Source: Fimbriimonadia bacterium (GTDB lineage Bacteria; Armatimonadota; Fimbriimonadia; Fimbriimonadales; JABRVX01). From it: a DNA stretch of 64,000 bases. The first letter of the stretch is position 1. The number at the start of each line of letters is the position of its first letter. The notes beneath the pieces were generated by a model that ran no database searches, was not told where the DNA came from, and worked only from the letters and a program-made list of their open reading frames with translations. The stretch lies in NCBI GenBank assembly GCA_041483895.1, contig JBGPGO010000007.1, positions 1 through 64,000 on the forward strand, written 5' to 3'. A program made the position numbers and the translations under genes. Shown here piece after piece: positions 50,314-61,778 of the stretch.

Positions 50314-51249
50314 TCACGCCAGCTCGGACAGCAGTCGGCTCGTCCTGCCCGGCAGGTGTTCCCGTGCATCGTCGTAGATCATCAGCGTCTCCAGTTTGGA
50401 ATGGCGGCTGAGCTTCTGCGCGCCGCGCACGTCGCCGTTGGTGGCGTGGAGGTAGGCGGTGATGCTGGTGTGCCGCCACTTGTGCGGACTGAAGTTCTGG
50501 ATGCCGGCCTTCTTGGCATAGTGCTTTACCATGAACGCAAGGCCGACGCCGGTGATGCCGGATGGCTGGCCGGCGCAAGAGAGGAACAGTTCCGGTCGGC
50601 TATCGTTCCGACATGCGAGGTAGTCGCCGATCGCTTCTATGGCCTTATCGCTCAGTGTCATCAGCACCTTCTGAGTCCCTTTGCCTTTGCCACGGACGGC
50701 TAGCGTCTTCGCATCCGGATCGAAGTCGGCCTTCGTCAGATTGCAGATCTCCTGCCTGCGAAGCGCCAGTTCCCAGAACAACCGGAGGATCGCCGCATCG
50801 CGCTTCCCCTTGACGGTAAAGGTGTTCGGCAGCATGAGCATCGCGGCCGCAGCGTCCTTGTCCACGCCCCTGGTGTCTCGATACTGCATTGTCTTCTCGC
50901 CCGGCACCAGTCCCTGCGGATTGACTTCCGTCAGCCCAAGCTGCCGCGCAACGCTCAGAAGCGAGCGGATGGCCGTTAGCCGACGATTGAGGGTCACCTC
51001 CGCCACGCCTTGCTCGATCTGCTGCATCTTGAAGGTGAGCATCGCCCGAACGACGCCGGTCGTCTCAAGCTTGAAGAACGCTCCGATTGTCTGCGGCGTT
51101 GGCTCGCTCCTGGCCACGACCCGGAAGAACAGCCCTAGATCCCGCTGGTAGGCCAGCCTCGTGACTTCGCTCCGCTTGGACTTCAGAAGGAACTCCAGTG
51201 CATCCGGCGCCACCGGACTCGGTTCTGTAAGTTTGAGTTCAATTGCCAT
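50314..51249 (-). CDS. XerC-like tyrosine recombinase / resolvase
   Basis: TRLAYQRDL, TLNRRLTAIRS, LALRRQE, GKG, PHKWRH, SRHS, IY; AGGAGG RBS. Confidence 0.93.
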   Translation of the reverse strand: MAIELKLTEPSPVAPDALEFLLKSKRSEVTRLAYQRDLGLFFRVVARSEPTPQTIGAFFKLETTGVVRAMLTFKMQQIEQGVAEVTLNRRLTAIRSLLSVARQLGLTEVNPQGLVPGEKTMQYRDTRGVDKDAAAAMLMLPNTFTVKGKRDAAILRLFWELALRRQEICNLTKADFDPDAKTLAVRGKGKGTQKVLMTLSDKAIEAIGDYLACRNDSRPELFLSCAGQPSGITGVGLAFMVKHYAKKAGIQNFSPHKWRHTSITAYLHATNGDVRGAQKLSRHSKLETLMIYDDAREHLPGRTSRLLSELA

Positions 51250-51263
51250 GGTCCTTGCCTCCT

Positions 51264-51295
51264 TTGGTATCGAAAAGGGCCATTATCGATACCAA
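51264..51295 (+). other. loxP/dif-like site S1: TTGGTATCGAAAA-GGGCCA-TTATCGATACCAA
   Basis: 13-6-13 palindrome abutting the recombinase RBS. Confidence 0.85.
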
Positions 51296-51411: not shown

Positions 51412-52737
51412 TCAAATGTCGATCTTGCTGCCAGATGTTGGCGCGATATCGAGGGCGAGTTCGATGGCCTGCTCCATTGTCAGCGCGCGTCCTTCCTGCC
51501 AGGCGGACGCGAAGGCTTCTTCGCCCAGAGCGGCGCGCGCGTCGGCGAGCTGAACGTCATGGCGGATGCGATCGTTCGGCGACAACGGTGAACCGCTTTG
51601 CACCCGCATCACCTCGACCGCGCTCCACAAACGCGCGGCCCGCGCCGCCTCCCCTTTCGAAAGCCAGAGAGCGGCAAAGGCCTGAAGCGAGTGTCCGATG
51701 AAGAAGGGGAGCCCAATTTTGCGAAGAATCGCCAAGCTCTGCTCATGCAGTTCTCTCGACGAGCCGAAGTCGCCCCGCTGTTGCGCGACGATTCCCAATT
51801 CGAGGAGCATGACCCCTATTCCCGGCCGGTCTCCAACCTCTCGCCGAATGGTCAAGCTTTCCTCAAAGAGGGCGCGCGCCGATTCGTAGTCGCCCCGTTC
51901 TTTTGCGATAATCCCTAGGTCGCCAAGCGAGTCCGCGATCCCGCGCCTGTCTCCCACCTCTCGCCGCAAGGTCAGGCTCTCTTCATAAAGCGCGAGCGCC
52001 GACTTCTGGTCGCTATGCGCTCTTGCGATGCCTCCAAGATTGTTGAGAGTGACCGCGATGCCCCGCTTGTCACCCAATTCTCGATAGAGCGACAGGCTCT
52101 CTTCATAAAATTCTCTCGCCGGCCCTAGATCGCCTTGCCGGCTGTAGGAGTTGCCCATATTGTTCAGAGAGCCGGCTATGCCCACCTCATCCCCTATCTC
52201 GCGAAAGACCGACAGGCTCTCCTCAAAGAGCGTCCGGGCTGCCCCATTGTCGTCCTGGAAGTGAGCCAAGCCGCCCGCCCCGTTCAACGCCTTCGCTCTC
52301 GCGGCCGTGCGACATCCACTTTCGTCCCCGGACAACACGATTCCGACCCGCTCGCGCCCCTCAACCAGATGCCCACGCACGGACCAGAAACGCCACAAGG
52401 CCCCAGCGAGACGCAGGGCCTCGGCGTCGTTCCGCAGCTCAAGGACTGATCTGAGGTTGTCATGATCGGACTCCAGTCGTTCCAGCCAAGCAGCCTGCTC
52501 CAGCCCCGTCAACTGCGGTTCCGCTTCCTCCGCCAGCGTCAAGTAGAAGCCACGGTGCCGGTCCCGAACGGCCTCGCCCTCGCCGCTCTCGAACAGACGA
52601 TCCCGCCCATACTGCCGCACGGTCTCCAATAGCCGATAGCGCGTCTGCCCGTTATCCTCTTCGGTCACAACGAGATTCTTGTCGACGAGGGAAGCGAGGA
52701 TTTCGCCTGCCTCGAAGGAGTCGATTGGCCCGCTCAT
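51412..52737 (-). CDS. Winged-helix + TPR sensor module 2 (C-terminal part of a STAND protein)
   Basis: LVDKNLV..RYRLLETVRQY, HDNLR, SLNNMG/TLNNLG TPRs, GRALTMEQAIELAL. Confidence 0.88.
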   Translation of the reverse strand: MSGPIDSFEAGEILASLVDKNLVVTEEDNGQTRYRLLETVRQYGRDRLFESGEGEAVRDRHRGFYLTLAEEAEPQLTGLEQAAWLERLESDHDNLRSVLELRNDAEALRLAGALWRFWSVRGHLVEGRERVGIVLSGDESGCRTAARAKALNGAGGLAHFQDDNGAARTLFEESLSVFREIGDEVGIAGSLNNMGNSYSRQGDLGPAREFYEESLSLYRELGDKRGIAVTLNNLGGIARAHSDQKSALALYEESLTLRREVGDRRGIADSLGDLGIIAKERGDYESARALFEESLTIRREVGDRPGIGVMLLELGIVAQQRGDFGSSRELHEQSLAILRKIGLPFFIGHSLQAFAALWLSKGEAARAARLWSAVEVMRVQSGSPLSPNDRIRHDVQLADARAALGEEAFASAWQEGRALTMEQAIELALDIAPTSGSKIDI

Positions 52738-54041
52738 GCCTCGTTCGCCTCTAATGCGAATTCAACAGCTTGTTCTGTCGTCATGAGGCGGCCCTCCTGC
52801 CATGCCTGGTAGAATGCGGCATCGTCTCCCATATCGGCCCGGGCTGAGCTCACGCGTCGATCGTACTTCGATATTTCGCACGGCATTAGGGGTGATCCGA
52901 TCTCTTTGCGTAGACGTTCCGACGCGCCCCAGATTTGGGCGGCTCGAGGAGGATGGGCGAGTGGCGCCAGTTGTTCCAGCGAGCCGGCGATGCCCCTCGG
53001 ATCACCAAGTTCCTGCCATATTTTCACACTCTCCTTGAGTAGCTGCTGTCCAGCAATGCGGTCATCCAGTTCTCCTGCCACAGCACCAAGGCCTTGAAGC
53101 GCATTGGCGATTGTCCGCCGGTCGCCAAGGTCCCGAGCGATGGTCAGGCTTTCAGATTGCAGCGCTTCGGACATCGAGTACTCGCCACGATGCAAGGCCA
53201 CAAACCCTAGGTTGCATAGCGCCATGGCAATACCCAACCTGTTGCCGGCTTCCCTCATGATCGCCAGGCTCTCCTGATGCATGGTCCAAGCGGTTGGGTA
53301 ATCGACCTGCTCGGTGGCCATAATGCCGAGGTTGCCCAGCGCAACAGCAACGCCATACCGGTCATCGAGTTCTCGAAAGATCGCGAGGCTCTCCTCGAAC
53401 ACGGCTCGCGCATTCAGATGATCGCCCTGTGCCTTCGCCACATTCCCGAGACTGTTCAGTGAAACGGCAACCCCGAGACGGTCGCCGAGTTCCCTCCTGA
53501 TCGCCAAGCCCTCTGCCAACAGCTCTAGAGCGGCTGTATAGTCGCCTTGCTGTGAGGCCAACGAACCGGCGCCGTTAAGCGCCAATGCACGGACCGACCC
53601 AGATTGTCCGCCCGGTTCGACAGCCAGAAGTCCGGTGAGCCAATCACGTCCTTCGCTGATATGCCCACGGATCCACCAGAATCGCCAGAGAGCACCGGCC
53701 AGCCGGAGGCCCAAATCATTTCCGTCACATTGCTCGCGGCACCATTTTAGAGCCGACCGAAGGTTGTCATGCTCTATTTCGAATCGTTCCAGCCAAACCC
53801 CCTGGTCGGGCCCCGACAACTGGGGCACGGCTTCTTCCGCAAAGGCCAGAAAGTTATCTCTGTGTTTAGTCCGCCACTCATCGCTCTCACCGGTCTCCAA
53901 CAAACGCTCTCCTGCGTACTGTCGCACGGTTTCCAACAGACGAAAGCGCGTATGTCCACCTTCCTCTTCAGTCACAACCAGATTCTTGTCGACAAACGAG
54001 CCGAGTAAGTCAAGGACTTCCCGGGTTTCTATGGCGTTCAT
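52734..54041 (-). CDS. Winged-helix + TPR sensor module 1 (C-terminal part of a STAND protein)
   Basis: FVDKNLV..RFRLLETVRQY, HDNLR, TPRs, GRLMTTEQAVEFAL. Confidence 0.88.
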   Translation of the reverse strand: MNAIETREVLDLLGSFVDKNLVVTEEEGGHTRFRLLETVRQYAGERLLETGESDEWRTKHRDNFLAFAEEAVPQLSGPDQGVWLERFEIEHDNLRSALKWCREQCDGNDLGLRLAGALWRFWWIRGHISEGRDWLTGLLAVEPGGQSGSVRALALNGAGSLASQQGDYTAALELLAEGLAIRRELGDRLGVAVSLNSLGNVAKAQGDHLNARAVFEESLAIFRELDDRYGVAVALGNLGIMATEQVDYPTAWTMHQESLAIMREAGNRLGIAMALCNLGFVALHRGEYSMSEALQSESLTIARDLGDRRTIANALQGLGAVAGELDDRIAGQQLLKESVKIWQELGDPRGIAGSLEQLAPLAHPPRAAQIWGASERLRKEIGSPLMPCEISKYDRRVSSARADMGDDAAFYQAWQEGRLMTTEQAVEFALEANEA

Positions 54042-54042
54042 T

Positions 54043-55509
54043 TCACTCCGGATCCGAGCAGACGGATTCGGCTGCTTCGAGCGTCCAGCCGCCCGAGAAA
54101 ACGGACAGCCTACGCAACATCGTTTGTTCCTTCTCGCTCAGCAGGTCGTAGCTCCAGTCGATCAGCGCGCGCAGGGTCTGTTGTCGCGGCAGTGCGGTGC
54201 GGCTGCCGCCGGTGAGGAACCGGAAGCGGTCGTGCAGCCGATCATTGATTTCCTCCACCGAGAGCGCCCGCACCCGCGCCGCCGCAAGTTCGATTGCGAG
54301 CGGAATGCCGTCGAGATGGTGGCACAGCGAGACTAGCGCCGGCGCGTTTGCATTCGTTATCTCGAAGTCTAGGCGTGCCATGCGGGCGCGGTCGATGAAC
54401 AGTTGCGCCGATGCGAATTGCGAGAGCCGCTCGATCGTGTACGTCTGCTTCGGGTCCGGAGTCTCTAGCGAAGGGACTCGGTAGCTTTGCTCGCCCGTGA
54501 TGCCCAACGCCTCGCGGCTGCTGGCTAAGATCTTCACGCCAGGACATGAGCGAATAATTGCGTCCGCGACCTTTGCGCATTCTTCGAGCAGGTGCTCGCA
54601 GTTATCGAGCACGAGCAAGAGATTCTTTTTCTTAAGCCACTCGACCAGCGTCTGCGAAATCGATTTGCCTGGCTCTTCCTTCGCCCCCAGCACGTTTGCC
54701 ACTGCCTGCGGGACCAGATTAGGATCGCTGAGAGACGCCAATTCCACGAGCCATACTCCATCTCCGGTGCCATCCAGGAGATCGGCCGCTACCTGCACCG
54801 AGAGGCGGGTCTTTCCGCAGCCGCCGGAGCCGGTGAGCGTAACGAGGTGATTGGTTTCGACGAGACTTTTGACCTCCTCGACCGCCTTCTCGCGGCCGAT
54901 GAGCGAAGTGGTTTGTTGGGGCAGGTTGTTGGGGAGCTCGGGGTTGTTGAGTGAGCGCAATGGCGGAAAATCGTCTGGTAGATCAGGGTGTAGGAGTTGA
55001 AACACCGTCTCCAACCGCCCCAGGTCCTTCAGGCGGTGCTCGCCCAGATCTCGGAACATCACGGATTCCGGCAGGTTGTCGCGACACAGGTCGTAGGCCA
55101 CGCCAGAAACCAGGGTCTGACCGCCGTGTCCGATCGCGAGTAGCCGGGCGGTGCGGTTCAGCGGCTGGCCAAAGTAGTCCTCGTCGCGGAATTCGACTGC
55201 GCCGGTGTGCAATGCCATGCGAACTTTGATAGGTGTCCCTTCTGCCCACGGCTCCGATACCATTGCAAGCTGGGCGGCGAGAACCGCGGAGACCGCTTCC
55301 GGCGCCGTCGCGAACGCCGCGCAAAATGCGTCTCCAACTGTCTTGAAGATATGGCCCCGCGCGGCCGTTATGGCATCCCGAATCAGGGAGTCGTGACGAG
55401 CAACGGCCAGACGCATCTCTTCGGGTTGTGCCTCCCAGAGAGTTGTGCTCCCCTCGATGTCCGTGAACAAGAAGGTGACGGTACCGAAAGGAGGCTGTGC
55501 TGGGCTCAT
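54043..55509 (-). CDS. Class III adenylate/guanylate cyclase + NB-ARC/STAND NTPase (ends before the winged-helix/TPR part)
   Basis: TFLFTDIEGST, KTVGD, YFGQPLNRTAR; GSGGCGKT, LLVLDNCEH, LDGIPLAIELAAAR. Confidence 0.92.
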   Translation of the reverse strand: MSPAQPPFGTVTFLFTDIEGSTTLWEAQPEEMRLAVARHDSLIRDAITAARGHIFKTVGDAFCAAFATAPEAVSAVLAAQLAMVSEPWAEGTPIKVRMALHTGAVEFRDEDYFGQPLNRTARLLAIGHGGQTLVSGVAYDLCRDNLPESVMFRDLGEHRLKDLGRLETVFQLLHPDLPDDFPPLRSLNNPELPNNLPQQTTSLIGREKAVEEVKSLVETNHLVTLTGSGGCGKTRLSVQVAADLLDGTGDGVWLVELASLSDPNLVPQAVANVLGAKEEPGKSISQTLVEWLKKKNLLLVLDNCEHLLEECAKVADAIIRSCPGVKILASSREALGITGEQSYRVPSLETPDPKQTYTIERLSQFASAQLFIDRARMARLDFEITNANAPALVSLCHHLDGIPLAIELAAARVRALSVEEINDRLHDRFRFLTGGSRTALPRQQTLRALIDWSYDLLSEKEQTMLRRLSVFSGGWTLEAAESVCSDPE

Positions 55510-55697: not shown

Positions 55698-55727
55698 ACC
55701 TATCGATAACGTCCATTTTCGATAGGT
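55698..55727 (+). other. loxP/dif-like site S2: ACCTATCGATAA-CGTCCA-TTTTCGATAGGT
   Basis: 12-6-12 palindrome with the same core as S1. Confidence 0.85.
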
Positions 55728-56120: not shown

Positions 56121-59100
56121 TTAAGCCACCGCCCATTCACTACTCAAAGCCTCAGCTTGCTCCAAGACAGTCTGCGTCGCTTTCTCCTGCTTATCCGGCG
56201 GGTAGCCGTACTTGCGCAGTATCCGCTTGACAATCAGCCGCAAGTGAGCGCGGACGTTCTCACGGATGGTCCAGTCGATGGTCACGTTCGCCCGGACAGC
56301 CGTTACAAGTTCCTGCGCGATTGTCCGCAGCGTATCGTCGCCCAAGACCTTGACGGCAGAATCGTTCGTCTCCAAGGCATCGTAGAAGGCCAGCTCGTCC
56401 TCGGACAGCCCCATCTTCTCACCACGCGCCTCTGCTTCGCGCAGCTCCCGCGCTAGCTTGATCAATTCTTCAATGACTTGCGCAGCCTCAATCGCCCGGT
56501 TCCGGTACTTCCGAAGCGTGTCCTCAAGCATCTCGGCAAACGAACGCGCCTCTACCACATTCTTGCGCCCGCGCCTGCCAATCTCCCCCGCCAACAGTTT
56601 TCGAAGAAGCTCAACCGCCAAGTTCCGTTGCGGCATGTTGGCGACCTCAGCCAAGAACTCATCGGACAGGATCGATATGTCCGGCTTTTCCAGACCGGCG
56701 GCGGCGAAAACGTCCATTACCCCCTCGGATGCAATTGCTCGCGAAACGATCTGCCGCACCGCATGGTCGATCTCTTCTTCCGTCCGCGCCCGATCTGGAT
56801 CACCCTTGGAAAGCGCCGCCGCGACCGCCTGGAAGAACGCTACGTCGTCTCGAATCCGTAACGCCTCAGGATGCGGCACCGAAAGCGCAAACGCCTTCGA
56901 CAGATCCCGCGCCGCGCGCACGAACCGCTCCTTCCCATCCTCTTGCGCCAAGATGTGTTCCTGCGCTCCGGGGAGAAGGCTCAGCCGCTCACTGGGAGAC
57001 TGCGACATCCATGCCGACCAGTCGAATCCATGGAACATGCCGCAGCAGATCTCGTACTTCTCCAGCATGACGGCAACCGCTTCGTCCTGATCTAGAGCCG
57101 GTGCGCCGGTCCCACCGCTCTTGGTGTAGGTGGCCAGCGCTTGTTTCAACTCATGCGCGATACCGAGATAGTCCACCACCAACCCACCGGGCTTATCTTT
57201 GAACACCCGGTTCACCCGCGCGATTGCCTGCATCAGGCCGTGCCCGCGCATCGGCTTGTCCATATACATCGTGTGCAATGACGGCGCATCGAATCCCGTC
57301 AGCCACATATCGCGCACCAGCACGATTTTGAACGGATCGTCGGGATTGCGGAATCGATTAGCGAGCTTCTCGCGACGGCCCTTGTTGCGGATATGCTCCT
57401 GCCAATCGACAGTGTCGCTTGCCGAGCCGGTCATCACGACCTTCATGGCGCCCTTATCGTCGTCCGAGTTGCCCCACTCGGGTCGCAACTTCACAAGCTC
57501 TCCGTAAAGCTCGACGGCGATTCTGCGGCTCATGCACACGATCATCGCCTTGCCTTCCATCGCGTCAAGCCGCTGCTCATAGTGCTGAACGATGTCCTCG
57601 GCGATTAGCCGGATGCGCTTCTCCGACCCAACAATGGCTTCTAGCTGCGCCCATTTCGTCTTTAGCTTTTCCTTCTGCGATATCTCCTCGCCTTCGGTTA
57701 CCTCTTCGAACTTCGGATCGATCCTGGGCCGCTCTGCTTCATCGAGTTCGAGCTTCGCCAGCCGACTCTCGTAATAGATCGGCACGGTTGCCTGGTCCTC
57801 GACCGCCTGCCGAATGTCGTAAATGCTCATGTAGTCATCGAACACCGCCCGCGTATTCTTGTCTGTCAGTTCGACCGGTGTTCCGGTAAAGCCGATAAAC
57901 GATGCATTTGGCAGTGCGTCGCGCATATGGCGGGCGAACCCATCAATGAAATCGTACTGGCTCCGGTGCGCCTCGTCCGCGATGACGACGATGTTGTGCC
58001 GGTCCGATAGGACAGGATGCTGATCGCCTTTGTCTTCCGGGAAGAACTTATGGATCGTCGTGAACACGACTCCGCCGGCATTCACCGACAGCTTCTTCCG
58101 CAGGTCAGCGCGATCGGTCGCCTGAACCGGCGGCTGGCGCAGCAGTTCCTGGCAGGCGGAAAACACCCCGAACAGCTGATCGTCAAGATCGTTCCGATCC
58201 GTCAGAACGACCAGCGTCGGATTCTCCATCGCAGCTTCAGTAATAACGCGAACGGCATAGAAAGCCATCGTTAGGCTCTTGTCGGACCCTTGCGTGTGCC
58301 AGACGACGCCAATCCGCCGATCGCCCGGTTTGCCTCCTGCCTGGTGCTTTGCCATATAGCCGCTCTTCTGCTCCCGCACAACGTCCGTCCGCAATTGCGC
58401 CGTGCGAACCGTCTCCTCTATCCCAACATTGACAGCGTGAAACTGGTGGTATCCCGCCATCTTCTTGACGATCTTGCCACCGCCCGAATCTTCGAAGACG
58501 ATGAAATGCCTGAGCATCGAAAGCAGACGGCGTTTCTCGAAAATTCCTTGGATGACAACTTGCAATTCCGGTAACCTCGAATCCGCAACGCTATCTCCCG
58601 TGATCGCCTTCCACGGCTTGAACCACTCCTTCCCGGCGCTGAGGGTGCCGACGCGCGCCTGTAAACCATCGGAGATGACGAGCAGTTCGTTGAAAGAAAA
58701 GAGCGTCGGAAGCTCGGCCTTGTAAGTCGGAATTTGGTCATATGCCGTCCAGATGGTGGCATTCTCATCGGCGGCGTTCTTCAGTTCGAAAAGAGCAATC
58801 GGCAGTCCGTTGATGAAGACGACAATATCTTGTCGTCGGGTGTGCTTATTCTCAACGACGGTGTATTGGTTAACGGCCAGCCAGTCGTTGTTATCCGGAT
58901 TGTCAAAATCTATGATCCGAGCCTGCTCCCCCTTGATCGTTCCGTCGGCTCGCTTGAATTCCACGGTGACGCCGTCCACCAACATTCTGTGCAAGGCGCG
59001 ATTTCTTGTCTCGACCGTCGTTCCTTCGCTGCGGGCAATTTTCCGAAAGGCATTCTCAATTGCATCTACCGGCAGCGACGGGTTCAAAGTGACCAGTGCT

Positions 59101-59270
59101 TGTCGTAGCCTTACCTCGAGAATAACCTGTCCGTAATCCTCGCGCTAGGCGAACAGCCCTTCCGGTGCAATCTCCAAGCCGTTTTGGATAGCGTAGTCCA
59201 GGTCTTTCAGCCACGCAAGGGCGGCGTCCTCAACCTGTGATTCGACGAAGCTTGACAGTCCTGCACCCCA
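56121..59270 (-). pseudogene. hsdR: Type I restriction enzyme R subunit, inactivated
   Basis: [35 protein letters not shown]; in-frame TAG at 59145-59147; Walker A reads QGSDKS instead of QGSGKS. Confidence 0.9.
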
Positions 59271-59273
59271 ATG

Positions 59274-59743
59274 CTATTCAGTTGACAATTTCAAGTATAC
59301 AGTGTTTCCCGTGTGAGTATCGTAACGATGTACACTAACAAGCCCGCCTGCGACATAGTCGAACCACTTCTCGCCAGTAACAAGCACCAGTTTCGCGGCA
59401 CGGGCACAGGCAGCAATCCAAATGTCATTATCGCGATTGGGAACCGCTGGCTTGGATTCAATCTTGACTCTGTACTGAATCGCTGCATACGCATTGACGA
59501 CTTCGTCTCGGTGGATCTCAACCATCGTGGCCCTCCGAAGTCGATGCTGCTGTCAGATATCGTGCTCGTGTTCCAGTTTCTTTGCCTTGCAAGAAACGCT
59601 ACCTCACCGATTGTCACTGAGCTAATGAATATCGGTGTGTGCGATTGAAGCCCCAACTTCGAAGCAAGCTGTTGACCCACTTCGCGGTTGCGTGCAAGAT
59701 ATACGATCGCATTCGTATCAAGGAGATACTCGTGCTCTGGCAT
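59274..59743 (-). pseudogene. PIN/VapC-family nuclease, frameshifted
   Basis: YLLDTNAI...ISSVTIGEV in one frame; DNDIWIAACA...LVTGEKWF in another. Confidence 0.85.
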
Positions 59744-59744
59744 G

Positions 59745-60698
59745 TTACCGAAGCGTCTCGAGGAGTTTCGTCAATTCCTCATCCGTCTCGTCGCCGGGCC
59801 AGGTCCCTATCCAATCACCGATCGTCAGTGCACCACGATTGCGAAGACGCAGCTCATTAATGATCGCTCCTGCGCTCGGCAATTCGGTGAACACGGCATC
59901 CCGAACCTCAGCAGGACGCACAACCATAGCTTCCAGCCGCAACTGCTTGCCGTTCGGCTTGTATATTAGATCCCCGTCGACCGCCACTGGTTCCCGACTA
60001 GTTATGTAGTGGCCAAGTCGCTCTGGATCGGAACCTACCCAAACTCCGCGCAGGCGTTCCTGACCATCTTTGATAAGAAGCTCAAACGAAGATTCGGAAA
60101 CACGGACCATATCGAGCCGTCCCACAATTCGGACTCTCTGCGGATCCGGAGTTTTCTCCAGCAGCAAACATGCGTGATCGGCTAGCGCCTTGTCAGCAGG
60201 CTCTCGTGTCGTACGGGCCACGTTGGGAAATGCGAGATATTCAACACCTTCCTTACCTGCTCCCTTCATTCTCGCAAAGTCCTCAAGTAGATCCGTGTCG
60301 TATCGACTGCTTTCCTCAACTTCGTGTTGAACATCGACGACCGCGTCCAGCAAATACTCAAATGCCGTGTCGTCTGGGTTAAGTGGTTCGCCAAAAAGTG
60401 CGGGTTGTTCAAGAAGCTTGGGTGCAGCTTCCTTTATGGTGGGTGCGCAATAAACTAACCCGTCTTGGGACCAGCCCTTTTCGAAGATCTCCCAAATCGG
60501 CCGAATGACGGATTCCGGCCTCCCAACTTTCCTGCTAATGGAAACGACGCGCATTCTTGTGCTTCGCCGGAGGCTCTCCTCGACCCAGCGCGACACAAAG
60601 CGCCCGGCGCGAGGGGTCGCCATCCCGTCGCGTACCCCGCGTCCTTTGACTTGCACCACTCTCTCAACTAGTTGCAGCTTCACACCTCCTCTGTTCAA
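59745..60698 (-). CDS. Hypothetical protein upstream of PIN (possible antitoxin partner)
   Basis: C-terminus IGTWPGDETDEELTKLL; 1 nt from the PIN start. Confidence 0.65.
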   Translation of the reverse strand: MNRGGVKLQLVERVVQVKGRGVRDGMATPRAGRFVSRWVEESLRRSTRMRVVSISRKVGRPESVIRPIWEIFEKGWSQDGLVYCAPTIKEAAPKLLEQPALFGEPLNPDDTAFEYLLDAVVDVQHEVEESSRYDTDLLEDFARMKGAGKEGVEYLAFPNVARTTREPADKALADHACLLLEKTPDPQRVRIVGRLDMVRVSESSFELLIKDGQERLRGVWVGSDPERLGHYITSREPVAVDGDLIYKPNGKQLRLEAMVVRPAEVRDAVFTELPSAGAIINELRLRNRGALTIGDWIGTWPGDETDEELTKLLETLR

Positions 60699-61746: not shown

Positions 61747-61778
61747 CAGCTATCGATAATGGACGTTATCGACAGCTG
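61747..61778 (-). other. loxP/dif-like site S3: CAGCTATCGATAA-TGGACG-TTATCGACAGCTG
   Basis: 13-6-13 palindrome; the spacer is the reverse complement of the S2 spacer. Confidence 0.85.

Follow-up and report, generated by a model that had tools for sequence, protein, structure and literature searches.

STAND/NLR switches have been treated as one sensor hard-wired to one ATPase. In the portion of the published account drawn on here, PH0952 and MalT share the NBD-HD-WHD-arm-TPR order and the fold of the proteins studied below, and each is one polypeptide with a DNA-binding effector (PMC6468293, PDB 6mfv). Fused cyclase-NB-ARC-TPR proteins from the same phylum as the locus (e.g. G535:C90) share its domains and motifs and have N-halves 50-83% identical to that of ORF1. 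The locus lies in the window (the whole 64,000-nucleotide stretch of DNA that was analyzed), and sequence comparisons and structure models suggest that it probably encodes a two-chain STAND (AP-ATPase/NB-ARC-type) adenylyl cyclase with alternative sensor subunits. Its features are as follows.

ORF1, 54043..55509, minus strand: putative N-subunit, 488 aa, C-terminal end EAAESVCSDPE
Junction 1, 54039..54045, minus strand: GAG TGA A ATG, with GGAG 4 nt before the ATG
ORF2, 52734..54041, minus strand: putative sensor subunit 1, 435 aa
VDKNLVVTEE-coding stretch of ORF2, 53962..53993, minus strand (ORF3 counterpart, 52655-52686)
Junction 2, 52734..52737, minus strand: ATGA overlap of ORF2 and ORF3
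ORF3, 51412..52737, minus strand: putative sensor subunit 2, 441 aa, with the architecture and start point of ORF2

The earlier note on this DNA had described a cyclase and NTPase ORF ending in EAAESVCSDPE, followed by two paralogous ORFs that start at the same homologous position. The coordinates and overlaps match this description, ORF2 and ORF3 are 47% identical, each opens with the missing half of the winged-helix domain, and TGA-A-ATG and ATGA are present at junctions 1 and 2, respectively, as claimed. The ATGA overlap suggests coupled translation, and the sensor genes of a second locus (L062) overlap in the same manner.

ORF1 matches PF00211 at residues 6-168 and, above the cut-off, NB-ARC (PF00931) at 208-414; it comprises a class III cyclase domain, NBD, HD1, and the first winged-helix half (H8, H9, S6, and H10) and ends in VCSDPE. 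Residues D17, K56, D60, R97, D111, N118, and R122 align with those of Ma1120 and trypanosome (GRESAG) adenylyl cyclases; across 35 split N-halves N118 is at least 90% conserved and the others are invariant. We take these to include the two metal-binding Asp (D17 and D60), the adenine-specifying Lys/Asp (K56 and D111), and the catalytic Asn/Arg (N118 and R122). The residue set of a class III adenylyl cyclase is present, and the domain is predicted to be one. Walker A (227-234), D302, R332, and GIP (401-403) are intact, with G227, G230, G232, K233, D302, R332, G401, I402, and P403 invariant in the same 35 N-halves; with its Walker A, Walker B, sensor-1 Arg, and GxP in HD1, ORF1 has the sequence features expected of an AP-ATPase/NB-ARC-type STAND protein. 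Near its end, position 486 is Asp in all 46 split rows (some of them found with a pattern that required Asp) and in 30 of 145 fused rows, which mostly have Gly there.

ORF2 and ORF3 carry TPR families (Pfam), and ORF2 consists of the second winged-helix half (H11, wing, and H12), the arm, and the TPR region. In a weak tree, ORF2 groups with the C-half of the fused relative from G535 (support 0.81; 50% identity, dN/dS 0.16) and ORF3 with a zinc-ribbon stand-alone sensor, P0012 (support 0.985); ORF3 is also 57% identical to the stand-alone P0027. The tail of ORF2, FALEANEA, was considered as a remnant of WTLEAAE, a candidate that was rejected, as ALE is the normal C-terminus of these sensors.

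Junction 1 falls in the loop between winged-helix helices H10 and H11, which is loop 485-494 in a model of the fused relative that is 83% identical to ORF1 (helices named by reading this model against PMC6468293). The model (pLDDT 92) matches 6mfv and Apaf-1, with the NBD-HD-WHD-arm-sensor fold, and its best fold match is the STAND-TPR protein 6mfv (Foldseek, E 5e-14); an Atlas search returned HTH_77 clusters only, at 0.90 or less. At our locus the NOD and sensor are not whole in one polypeptide, as a stop and restart lie within the WHD, and half a winged-helix domain alone would be expected to expose its core. Modeling of the NTPase with each sensor module had been proposed. For ORF3, a complex of ORF1 190-488 with ORF3 1-300 scored 0.76 in three runs, versus 0.00 for the best of three controls; of solved complexes, 116 of 157 pass the mark applied, as do 2 of 215 mismatched pairs, and this mark is roughly applicable to our self-made alignments. 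The runs share at least 78% of contacts, the pLDDT of the partner is at least 86, and the modeled interface includes ORF1 226-229 (the start of the P-loop) and 446-488. ORF1 and ORF3 would in this model rebuild the winged-helix domain, which we read as compatibility and not as binding because the halves of split genes often score well through their resemblance to single-chain STANDs of solved structure. At the position apparently equivalent to the MHD histidine, as judged from secondary structure, 28 of 43 free C-halves and 92 of 196 fused ones have LLET, and no xHD motif is found among the common variants; because LLET occurs in both forms, an AfsR-like ADP latch is not supported here.

Contigs from four runs, one of which may be the source sample, were compared with the junctions. 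Junction 1 is spanned in 4/4 runs, with at least 31 letters on each side, no gaps, and a depth of 3-6.

X1 contig, 53571-54134: 0 other letters
X2 contig, 53545-54214: 0 other letters
X3 contig, 53991-54674: 0 other letters
X4 contig, 53723-54175: 1 other letter

Junction 2 is spanned in two of the four runs (X1 and X2), and X3 reaches only 27 letters on one side. Gap-free coverage of junction 1 in all four runs excludes an assembly artefact there and confirms the stop and restart at 54035-54055, where a check of the reads had been called for.

The cut is not confined to this genome. Among 113 homologs of ORF1 that contain the GGW anchor (ORF1 itself excluded; 6 more lack the anchor), 36 end 16-23 residues past it, within the same 8 residues, which is a positional pile-up and not a frequency because proteins longer than 854 aa were left out of the search. 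About 1.5 ends would be expected per 8 residues, since the ends of the 76 later-ending homologs scatter across 393 residues. Two of the homologs, P0123 (80%) and P0124 (79%), end at the same residue as ORF1; most of the homologous protein matches come without genomic context, and what links P0123 to the stand-alone P0027 is the equal size of their contigs (both 96,981). No split form is present among the top 150 representatives at 50% clustering, where fused forms dominate; the genome itself has three intact fused cyclase-STAND paralogs, and the two genomes of its own family have one distant fused match each. A DNA search of 41 relatives found no orthologous locus, returning partial matches of 63-80% only. 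With strict in-frame-stop patterns, the genome collection yields 5 loci and the metagenome collection 1; a looser stop pattern matches 15 of 401 genomes, but most of these matches are out of frame or fall at TGG, and no frequency can be derived from either search. From the shared end point, we conclude that the cut recurs among related bacteria at the level of sequence. A literature search found no description of this split.

Where genomic context is available, the N-half is accompanied by free C-halves in several arrangements. The search for loci with this split point and multiple TPR modules that the earlier note had suggested yielded both the 36 shared cuts and L062, in which one N-half is followed by three tandem C-halves, the third frameshifted. 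The split N-half of G095 has a C-half adjoining it, and in G014 the order is reversed, with the C-half encoded upstream of the N-half, which no frameshift can explain. The N-halves of G040, G572, G319, G575, G576, and G577 are without a neighboring free C-half, and these genomes carry 1-6 free C-halves elsewhere (six in G575). The neighbors of L060-L064 are housekeeping-like genes, as judged by eye.

A free C-half is present in 10/10 genomes with a split N-half, compared with 0 clear cases and 1 ambiguous case (G121:C282, on a 1.2-kb contig) in 27 genomes without one; kin are not independent, and the controls were hand-picked; 5 of them are fragmented (220-930 contigs), and in 10 the absence of a split N-half was judged from the best 6 candidates. 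A single split N-half was found in each of the five genomes checked. Loci under several handles were counted once, and the counts were made after leaving out fragments starting inside H10 (P0116 and P0120), genes broken elsewhere (G095:C45, G234, G329, G346:C2, G382:C21, and G411 C26/C44/C53/C60), those at contig ends (G354 C89/C90 and G321:C149), G575:C12 (408-aa frame not recovered), and G575:C78 (126-aa frame). A zinc ribbon is present at the N-terminus of some free C-halves (9 of the best 120 homologs of ORF3, plus L161 and L172); a zinc-ribbon query at E<=1e-14 found none in 401 genomes and is uninformative because it missed even the known G319 case.

Both halves are under purifying selection, as seen in the split N-halves of G530/G531 (pN 0.13, pS 0.76) and G549/G040 (dN/dS 0.19), the free C-halves of G575/G577 (pN 0.23, pS 0.74), and the ORF2/ORF3 pair (dN/dS 0.195). 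The split N-halves do not form one clade (AU p 4.7e-6, for 16 split and 13 fused rows hand-chosen from 191), and in the weak tree mentioned above the free C-halves are interspersed with fused ones.

The three ORFs are enclosed exactly by two palindromic sites, next to a recombinase gene.

9-6-9 site, 55701..55724, no strand: TATCGATAA-N6-TTTTCGATA, upstream of ORF1, a candidate tyrosine-recombinase site by inferred function
Second 9-6-9 site, 51268..51291, no strand: downstream of ORF3, candidate
Tyrosine recombinase adjoining the module, 50314..51249, minus strand: PF00589 and PF02899, outside the STAND system

With up to 2 mismatches, 25 such sites occur on 6 contigs, compared with 0 in 2 base-shuffled genomes, and 7 further copies or fragments of the recombinase (76-91% identity) are present in the genome. 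The module lies next to the recombinase and a type I hsdR pseudogene with an in-frame TAG near its start, in keeping with the decay of neighboring genes noted earlier. Upstream of ORF1, a promoter scan picked out a single 9/12 site, which was not counted as evidence.

The recurrence of the cut among related bacteria raises the possibility that several exchangeable detectors feed a single switch. Either ORF2 or ORF3 would complete the switch by supplying ORF1 with the second WHD half, the arm, and a TPR sensor. By analogy with PH0952 and MalT, the sensor subunit would keep the NBD closed through contacts made by its wing tip, H12, arm, and TPR; once a ligand bound the TPR, these contacts would be released, allowing nucleotide exchange and oligomerization, whereupon the cyclase domains would pair and make cAMP. 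Several sensors acting on one ORF1 would form an OR-gate in which many inputs feed one output. The set of sensors could change by gain, loss, or re-fusion while the enzyme stayed as it is, and the three genes may travel as one module between the candidate recombinase sites. The interpretation in the earlier note holds in part: its main proposal, one NTPase with interchangeable sensors, is supported by comparative evidence, namely the recurring cut, the co-occurring free halves, the three-module genome, the reversed order, selection, and the model. With less assurance, we lean toward a broader reading in which each genome has one cyclase-STAND hub and a chromosome-wide library of sensors completes it in trans, with a two-chain NOD core and a helper/sensor logic arising by repeated, reversible WHD fission.

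A simple frameshift at junction 1 had also been raised. In this form a one-base change broke a once-fused ORF1-ORF2, ORF3 is a leftover, and the module decays with its island, whatever other genomes do. The closest relative of ORF1 with known context, G535 (83%), is fused, its C-half is the one with which ORF2 groups, and its linker is as long as junction 1 would be if one base were removed and the frame read on; the broken hsdR next door favors decay, and sporadic breaks exist in the family (G234, G329, G346, G411 C60/C53/C26/C44, and G382). However, those breaks sit at other positions, whereas the one at junction 1 falls in the same loop as in 36 other proteins and yields a stop, GGAG, and ATG at once. 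The linker DNA is unlike that of G535, P0123 and P0124 end at the residue of ORF1, none of the three ORFs is interrupted, and the catalytic motifs are intact. A real lineage-specific frameshift is possible but unlikely.

The halves may also be functional without being partners, with ORF1 unregulated or otherwise regulated and the free C-halves serving as decoys or dominant-negative regulators of fused paralogs. Such paralogs are present in all five split-N genomes listed and in this one, the free C-halves are widely diverged, some with a zinc ribbon, and the complex model can pass from likeness alone. This is nonetheless quite improbable, as genomes with many fused paralogs and no split N-half (G286, 27 matches; G235, 17; and G064, 42) have no free C-halves, and an unpartnered half of a winged-helix domain would probably leave its core exposed.

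The two-chain reading also has to be set against mechanisms that would make a full-length protein. Between ORF2 and ORF3 the VDKNLVVTEE stretch is identical at 30/32 nt and 8/10 codons, compared with 85/204 codons over the genes, so an old short conversion there is possible. A spare C-terminal cassette exchanged through it, as the earlier note envisaged, is not supported: the stretch sits inside ORF2, so a crossover would not join ORF3 to ORF1; the fused relative of ORF1 also reads VDKNLVVTE; and none of the 15 joints listed, out of 16, links ORF1 to ORF3. No shufflon-type site was found between constant and variable parts, the 9-6-9 sites lying outside the three ORFs and the longest exact ORF2/ORF3 match being 14 nt. 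Although junction 1 is one base out of frame and a recombinase and candidate sites flank the module, production of a full-length protein by programmed +1 frameshifting at TGA-A, or by swapping in ORF3 at VDKNLVVTEE, is highly unlikely, given that homologous systems show gaps, reversed or divergent order, and unlinked genes.

If the two-chain reading is correct, a cut within the NOD with several sensors per enzyme would be a different way to build receptor repertoires. It would offer a ready-made test system with a cAMP readout, in which the sensor-side half could be examined for a restraining or an enabling effect on the ATPase, orphan TPR sensors could be screened for ligands on one hub, and the same cut could be tried in other STANDs. 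In that case, real genes may also lie behind many short "TPR proteins" and "truncated cyclases" that are now annotated as fragments.

Among defense systems, PADLOC matched no Avs or other STAND model, giving only weak PycC (1e-4), mad8, and generic TPR matches; no NCBIfam family reached its cut-off, and none of the 10 proteins scanned had a Pycsar-type cNMP-binding family. In the parts of the reports used here, Avs and CARD-NLR (LypABC) defense STANDs have a TPR sensor, as this system does, and in some the effector is on a separate gene, but unlike here the ATPase and sensor are kept in one chain (PMC13581612, PMC13236601). AfsR, as far as its description was drawn on, is a bacterial switch of the NOD-TPR type whose latch follows the WHD wing, formed as a single chain with a SARP effector and an F/Y-HD motif where our proteins apparently have LLET (bioRxiv 10.64898/2026.09.02.748808). 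The fused cyclase-NB-ARC-TPR proteins of the phylum are likewise one chain, mostly with Gly at position 486 where the split form has Asp. Unlike PH0952 and MalT, the system described here is cut between WHD helices H10 and H11, has two alternative C-parts, and carries a predicted cyclase as its effector.

Re-reading of the sequence reproduced the three ORFs proposed in the earlier note, including their ends and overlaps:

54043-55509, minus strand: ORF1, N-terminal half (488 aa) with class III cyclase and NB-ARC domains
52734-54041, minus strand: ORF2, C-terminal half (putative sensor subunit) with a TPR array
51412-52737, minus strand: ORF3, C-terminal half (putative sensor subunit) with a TPR array, 47% identical to ORF2

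When the junctions were checked against contigs (contigs only, depth 3-6) from 4 runs, one of which may be the source sample, the ORF1/ORF2 junction (junction 1) was crossed without a gap in 4 of 4 runs and the ORF2/ORF3 junction (junction 2) was crossed in 2 of 4. Because contigs cross the junctions without a gap, the split is present in the DNA of the population. This genome also encodes three intact fused cyclase-STAND-TPR paralogues (896, 936, and 1003 aa).

A plain frameshift at junction 1 in this genome, the simple option also raised in the earlier note, is unlikely: the matching length of the linker in a fused relative and the broken nearby hsdR speak for it, but accidental breaks in other genomes sit at other positions. 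The earlier note's ALTERNATIVES, exchange via the stretch encoding VDKNLVVTEE, was not borne out, as no exact run exceeds 14 nt despite 30 of 32 nt matching, the peptide also occurs in the fused relative, the stretch sits inside ORF2, and an ORF1-ORF3 joint is absent among the joints listed.

The cut that separates the two chains recurs among homologues, as a search for the same split point revealed. From the best 120 ORF1 homologues of 268-854 aa, 113 besides ORF1 could be anchored, and 36 of these 113 terminate 16-23 residues past the GGW motif, usually with VC(A/S)D plus 2-4 residues; the length filter drops full-length fused proteins, so this value describes a pile-up and not a frequency. 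One of the 113 ends before that window, and the later-ending homologues (n = 76) are spread over 393 residues, giving 1.5 expected per such window. Across the phylum, fused forms predominate over split forms. Among the best 120 homologues of ORF3, classified from protein sequences alone and without genomic context, 14 besides ORF3 itself open with a Met lying 14-38 residues ahead of the LVDK anchor, and 9 bear an N-terminal zinc ribbon of their own. Fused forms or fragments account for 86, another 6 are ambiguous, and 4 lack the anchor. Free sensor halves in which an N-terminal zinc ribbon and a Pro/Ala-rich linker replace the ATPase half were seen in P0010, P0012, P0013, P0016, P0021, P0028, P0086, P0090, P0106, P0277, P0311, and P0315 and at loci L161 and L172. 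A further protein, P0321 (3933 aa), contains four NB-ARC-like stretches matching the N-half profile.

At least one free C-half was found in all 10 genomes carrying a split N-half (G000, the present genome, and G014, G040, G095, G319, G411, G572, G575, G576, and G577). The 27 genomes in which no split N-half was seen, including the near-complete, fused-paralogue-rich G286 (27 matches), G235 (17), and G064 (42), yielded no clear free C-halves and one ambiguous case. Fisher's p was 1.2e-7 for the first 10 versus 17 genomes, a comparison that includes non-independent kin, hand-picked controls, and five fragmented control genomes. Each of 5 split genomes checked (5/5) has one split N-half. The C-half is adjacent in G095, its gene precedes that of the N-half in G014, and at metagenome locus L065 a match to the C-half sits upstream in divergent orientation. 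Locus L062 (record titled Chthonomonadaceae) carries a single N-half with three C-halves in tandem; the first two share an ATGA overlap, and the third is frameshifted. In six genomes, unrelated genes directly follow the N-half and free C-halves lie elsewhere.

Free C-halves elsewhere in genomes with unrelated genes directly after the N-half
G040: 2
G319: 1
G572: 1
G575: 6 (one at a contig start)
G576: 4
G577: 2

Purifying selection acts on pairs of split N-halves (G530/G531, pN 0.13, pS 0.76; G549/G040, dN/dS 0.19) and of free C-halves (G575/G577, pN 0.23, pS 0.74; 0.37-0.48 in more distant pairs), with near-saturated synonymous divergence. In a 191-row tree, split N-halves require 13 state changes and do not form one clade, and their monophyly is rejected when 29 hand-chosen rows are put to an AU test (p 4.7e-6); the large trees contain one fused row from G036, a genome marked as unpublished, on which none of the conclusions depends. 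The ORF1 clade (support 100) has five members, three split and two fused. In a weak tree of a short region, ORF2 clusters with the fused C-half of G535, and ORF3 falls beside a free sensor that has a zinc ribbon. Protein P0125 is an N-half joined to a C-half having an ORF3-type start. This mixed placement and P0125 indicate repeated fission and fusion at the winged-helix loop. In the N-half alignment, A378, A415, D427, E478, and D486 are far commoner in split than in fused forms, despite non-monophyly, and are possibly interface adaptations. Based on strong comparative support, the two-chain STAND cyclase appears to be a real, recurrent variant of a known protein family.

To place the cut in the fold, we modeled G535:C90, the closest fused relative with genomic context (N-half identity 83%, pLDDT 92), which in fold comes closest to the STAND-TPR protein PH0952 (6mfv) and next to Apaf-1. 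The cut maps to loop 485-494 of this model, flanked by helices 477-484 and 495-507, and, in the nomenclature of PMC6468293, would separate H10 from H11 within the winged-helix domain. That paper describes a resting-state NBD touched by the tip of the wing, the beginning of H12, the arm, and the TPR sensor, with the arm as the docking surface for H10. With the NBD on ORF1, most restraining elements would be carried by ORF2 or ORF3. The complex modeling proposed in the earlier note was successful for ORF3: ORF1 190-488 with ORF3 1-300 scored 0.76 (three runs; best control 0.00), with contact agreement of at least 78% and partner pLDDT of at least 86, above a mark that 116 of 157 solved complexes reached, against 2 of 215 mismatched pairs, and that is roughly applicable here (own alignments used). 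The modeled interface restores the winged-helix domain and extends to the ORF1 P-loop. Since split-gene halves tend to pass via likeness to solved single-chain proteins, the model indicates compatibility only.

The interval between two palindromic 9-6-9 sites, 51268-51291 and 55701-55724, is occupied exactly by the three ORFs. Sites of this kind, candidate tyrosine-recombinase sites of the form TATCGATAA-N6-TTTTCGATA, lie at the following places:

Window: 51268-51291, 55701-55724, 61751-61774
Also: C1, C2, C4, C6, C7 66-79 kb, C11 100-133 kb

A total of 25 were counted on 6 contigs, versus 0 in 2 shuffled genomes, and they lie close to copies of the tyrosine recombinase that adjoins the three ORFs, of which there are 8 copies or fragments. 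The ORFs' fit between sites and the proximity of sites to recombinase copies suggest that the three-ORF module is mobile cargo. PADLOC gave no hit to Avs or to any other STAND-type defence model. The array delimits gene-sized modules and, with the recombinase, resembles a dif-module-type cassette system. No 9-6-9 site was found at the other split-family loci scanned, so the sites do not characterize the split family as a whole. Another STAND-TPR gene (1064 aa; G000:C11 127676-130870) lies between sites at 126078 and 133051. The window also holds a type I hsdR (56121-59264) with an early in-frame TAG and an odd QGSDKS at the expected Walker A, with no intact hsdM or hsdS recognized adjoining it, and, in the same island, a PIN-like ORF (59291-59743; weak PF01850) and an adjoining 317-aa ORF (59745-60698).

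Class III cyclases act as dimers, and the ORF1 cyclase has the canonical adenylyl-cyclase residues. ORF1 paired with either ORF2 or ORF3 probably forms a resting switch that a TPR ligand would release: ligand binding would let go the closing contacts, and nucleotide exchange and oligomerization would bring cyclase domains together to make cAMP. Every step past pairing is drawn by analogy from available accounts of PH0952, MalT, AfsR, and Avs7. A search of the available literature, including PMC13236601, PMC13581612, 10.64898/2026.09.02.748808, PMC7159879, PMC10907252, and PMC6468293, gave no account of a STAND that is split within its winged-helix domain and served by more than one sensor subunit, and the two-chain cyclase-STAND variant is apparently undescribed so far. 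PMC13581612 uses the term "split proteins" a single time, in its methods for Avs7/Dsr1, and its supplements may list split STANDs. The AfsR latch has an xHD-type motif, whereas the split and fused cyclase-STANDs here equally have LLET at the apparently equivalent position, and thus their off-state chemistry may differ from that of AfsR.
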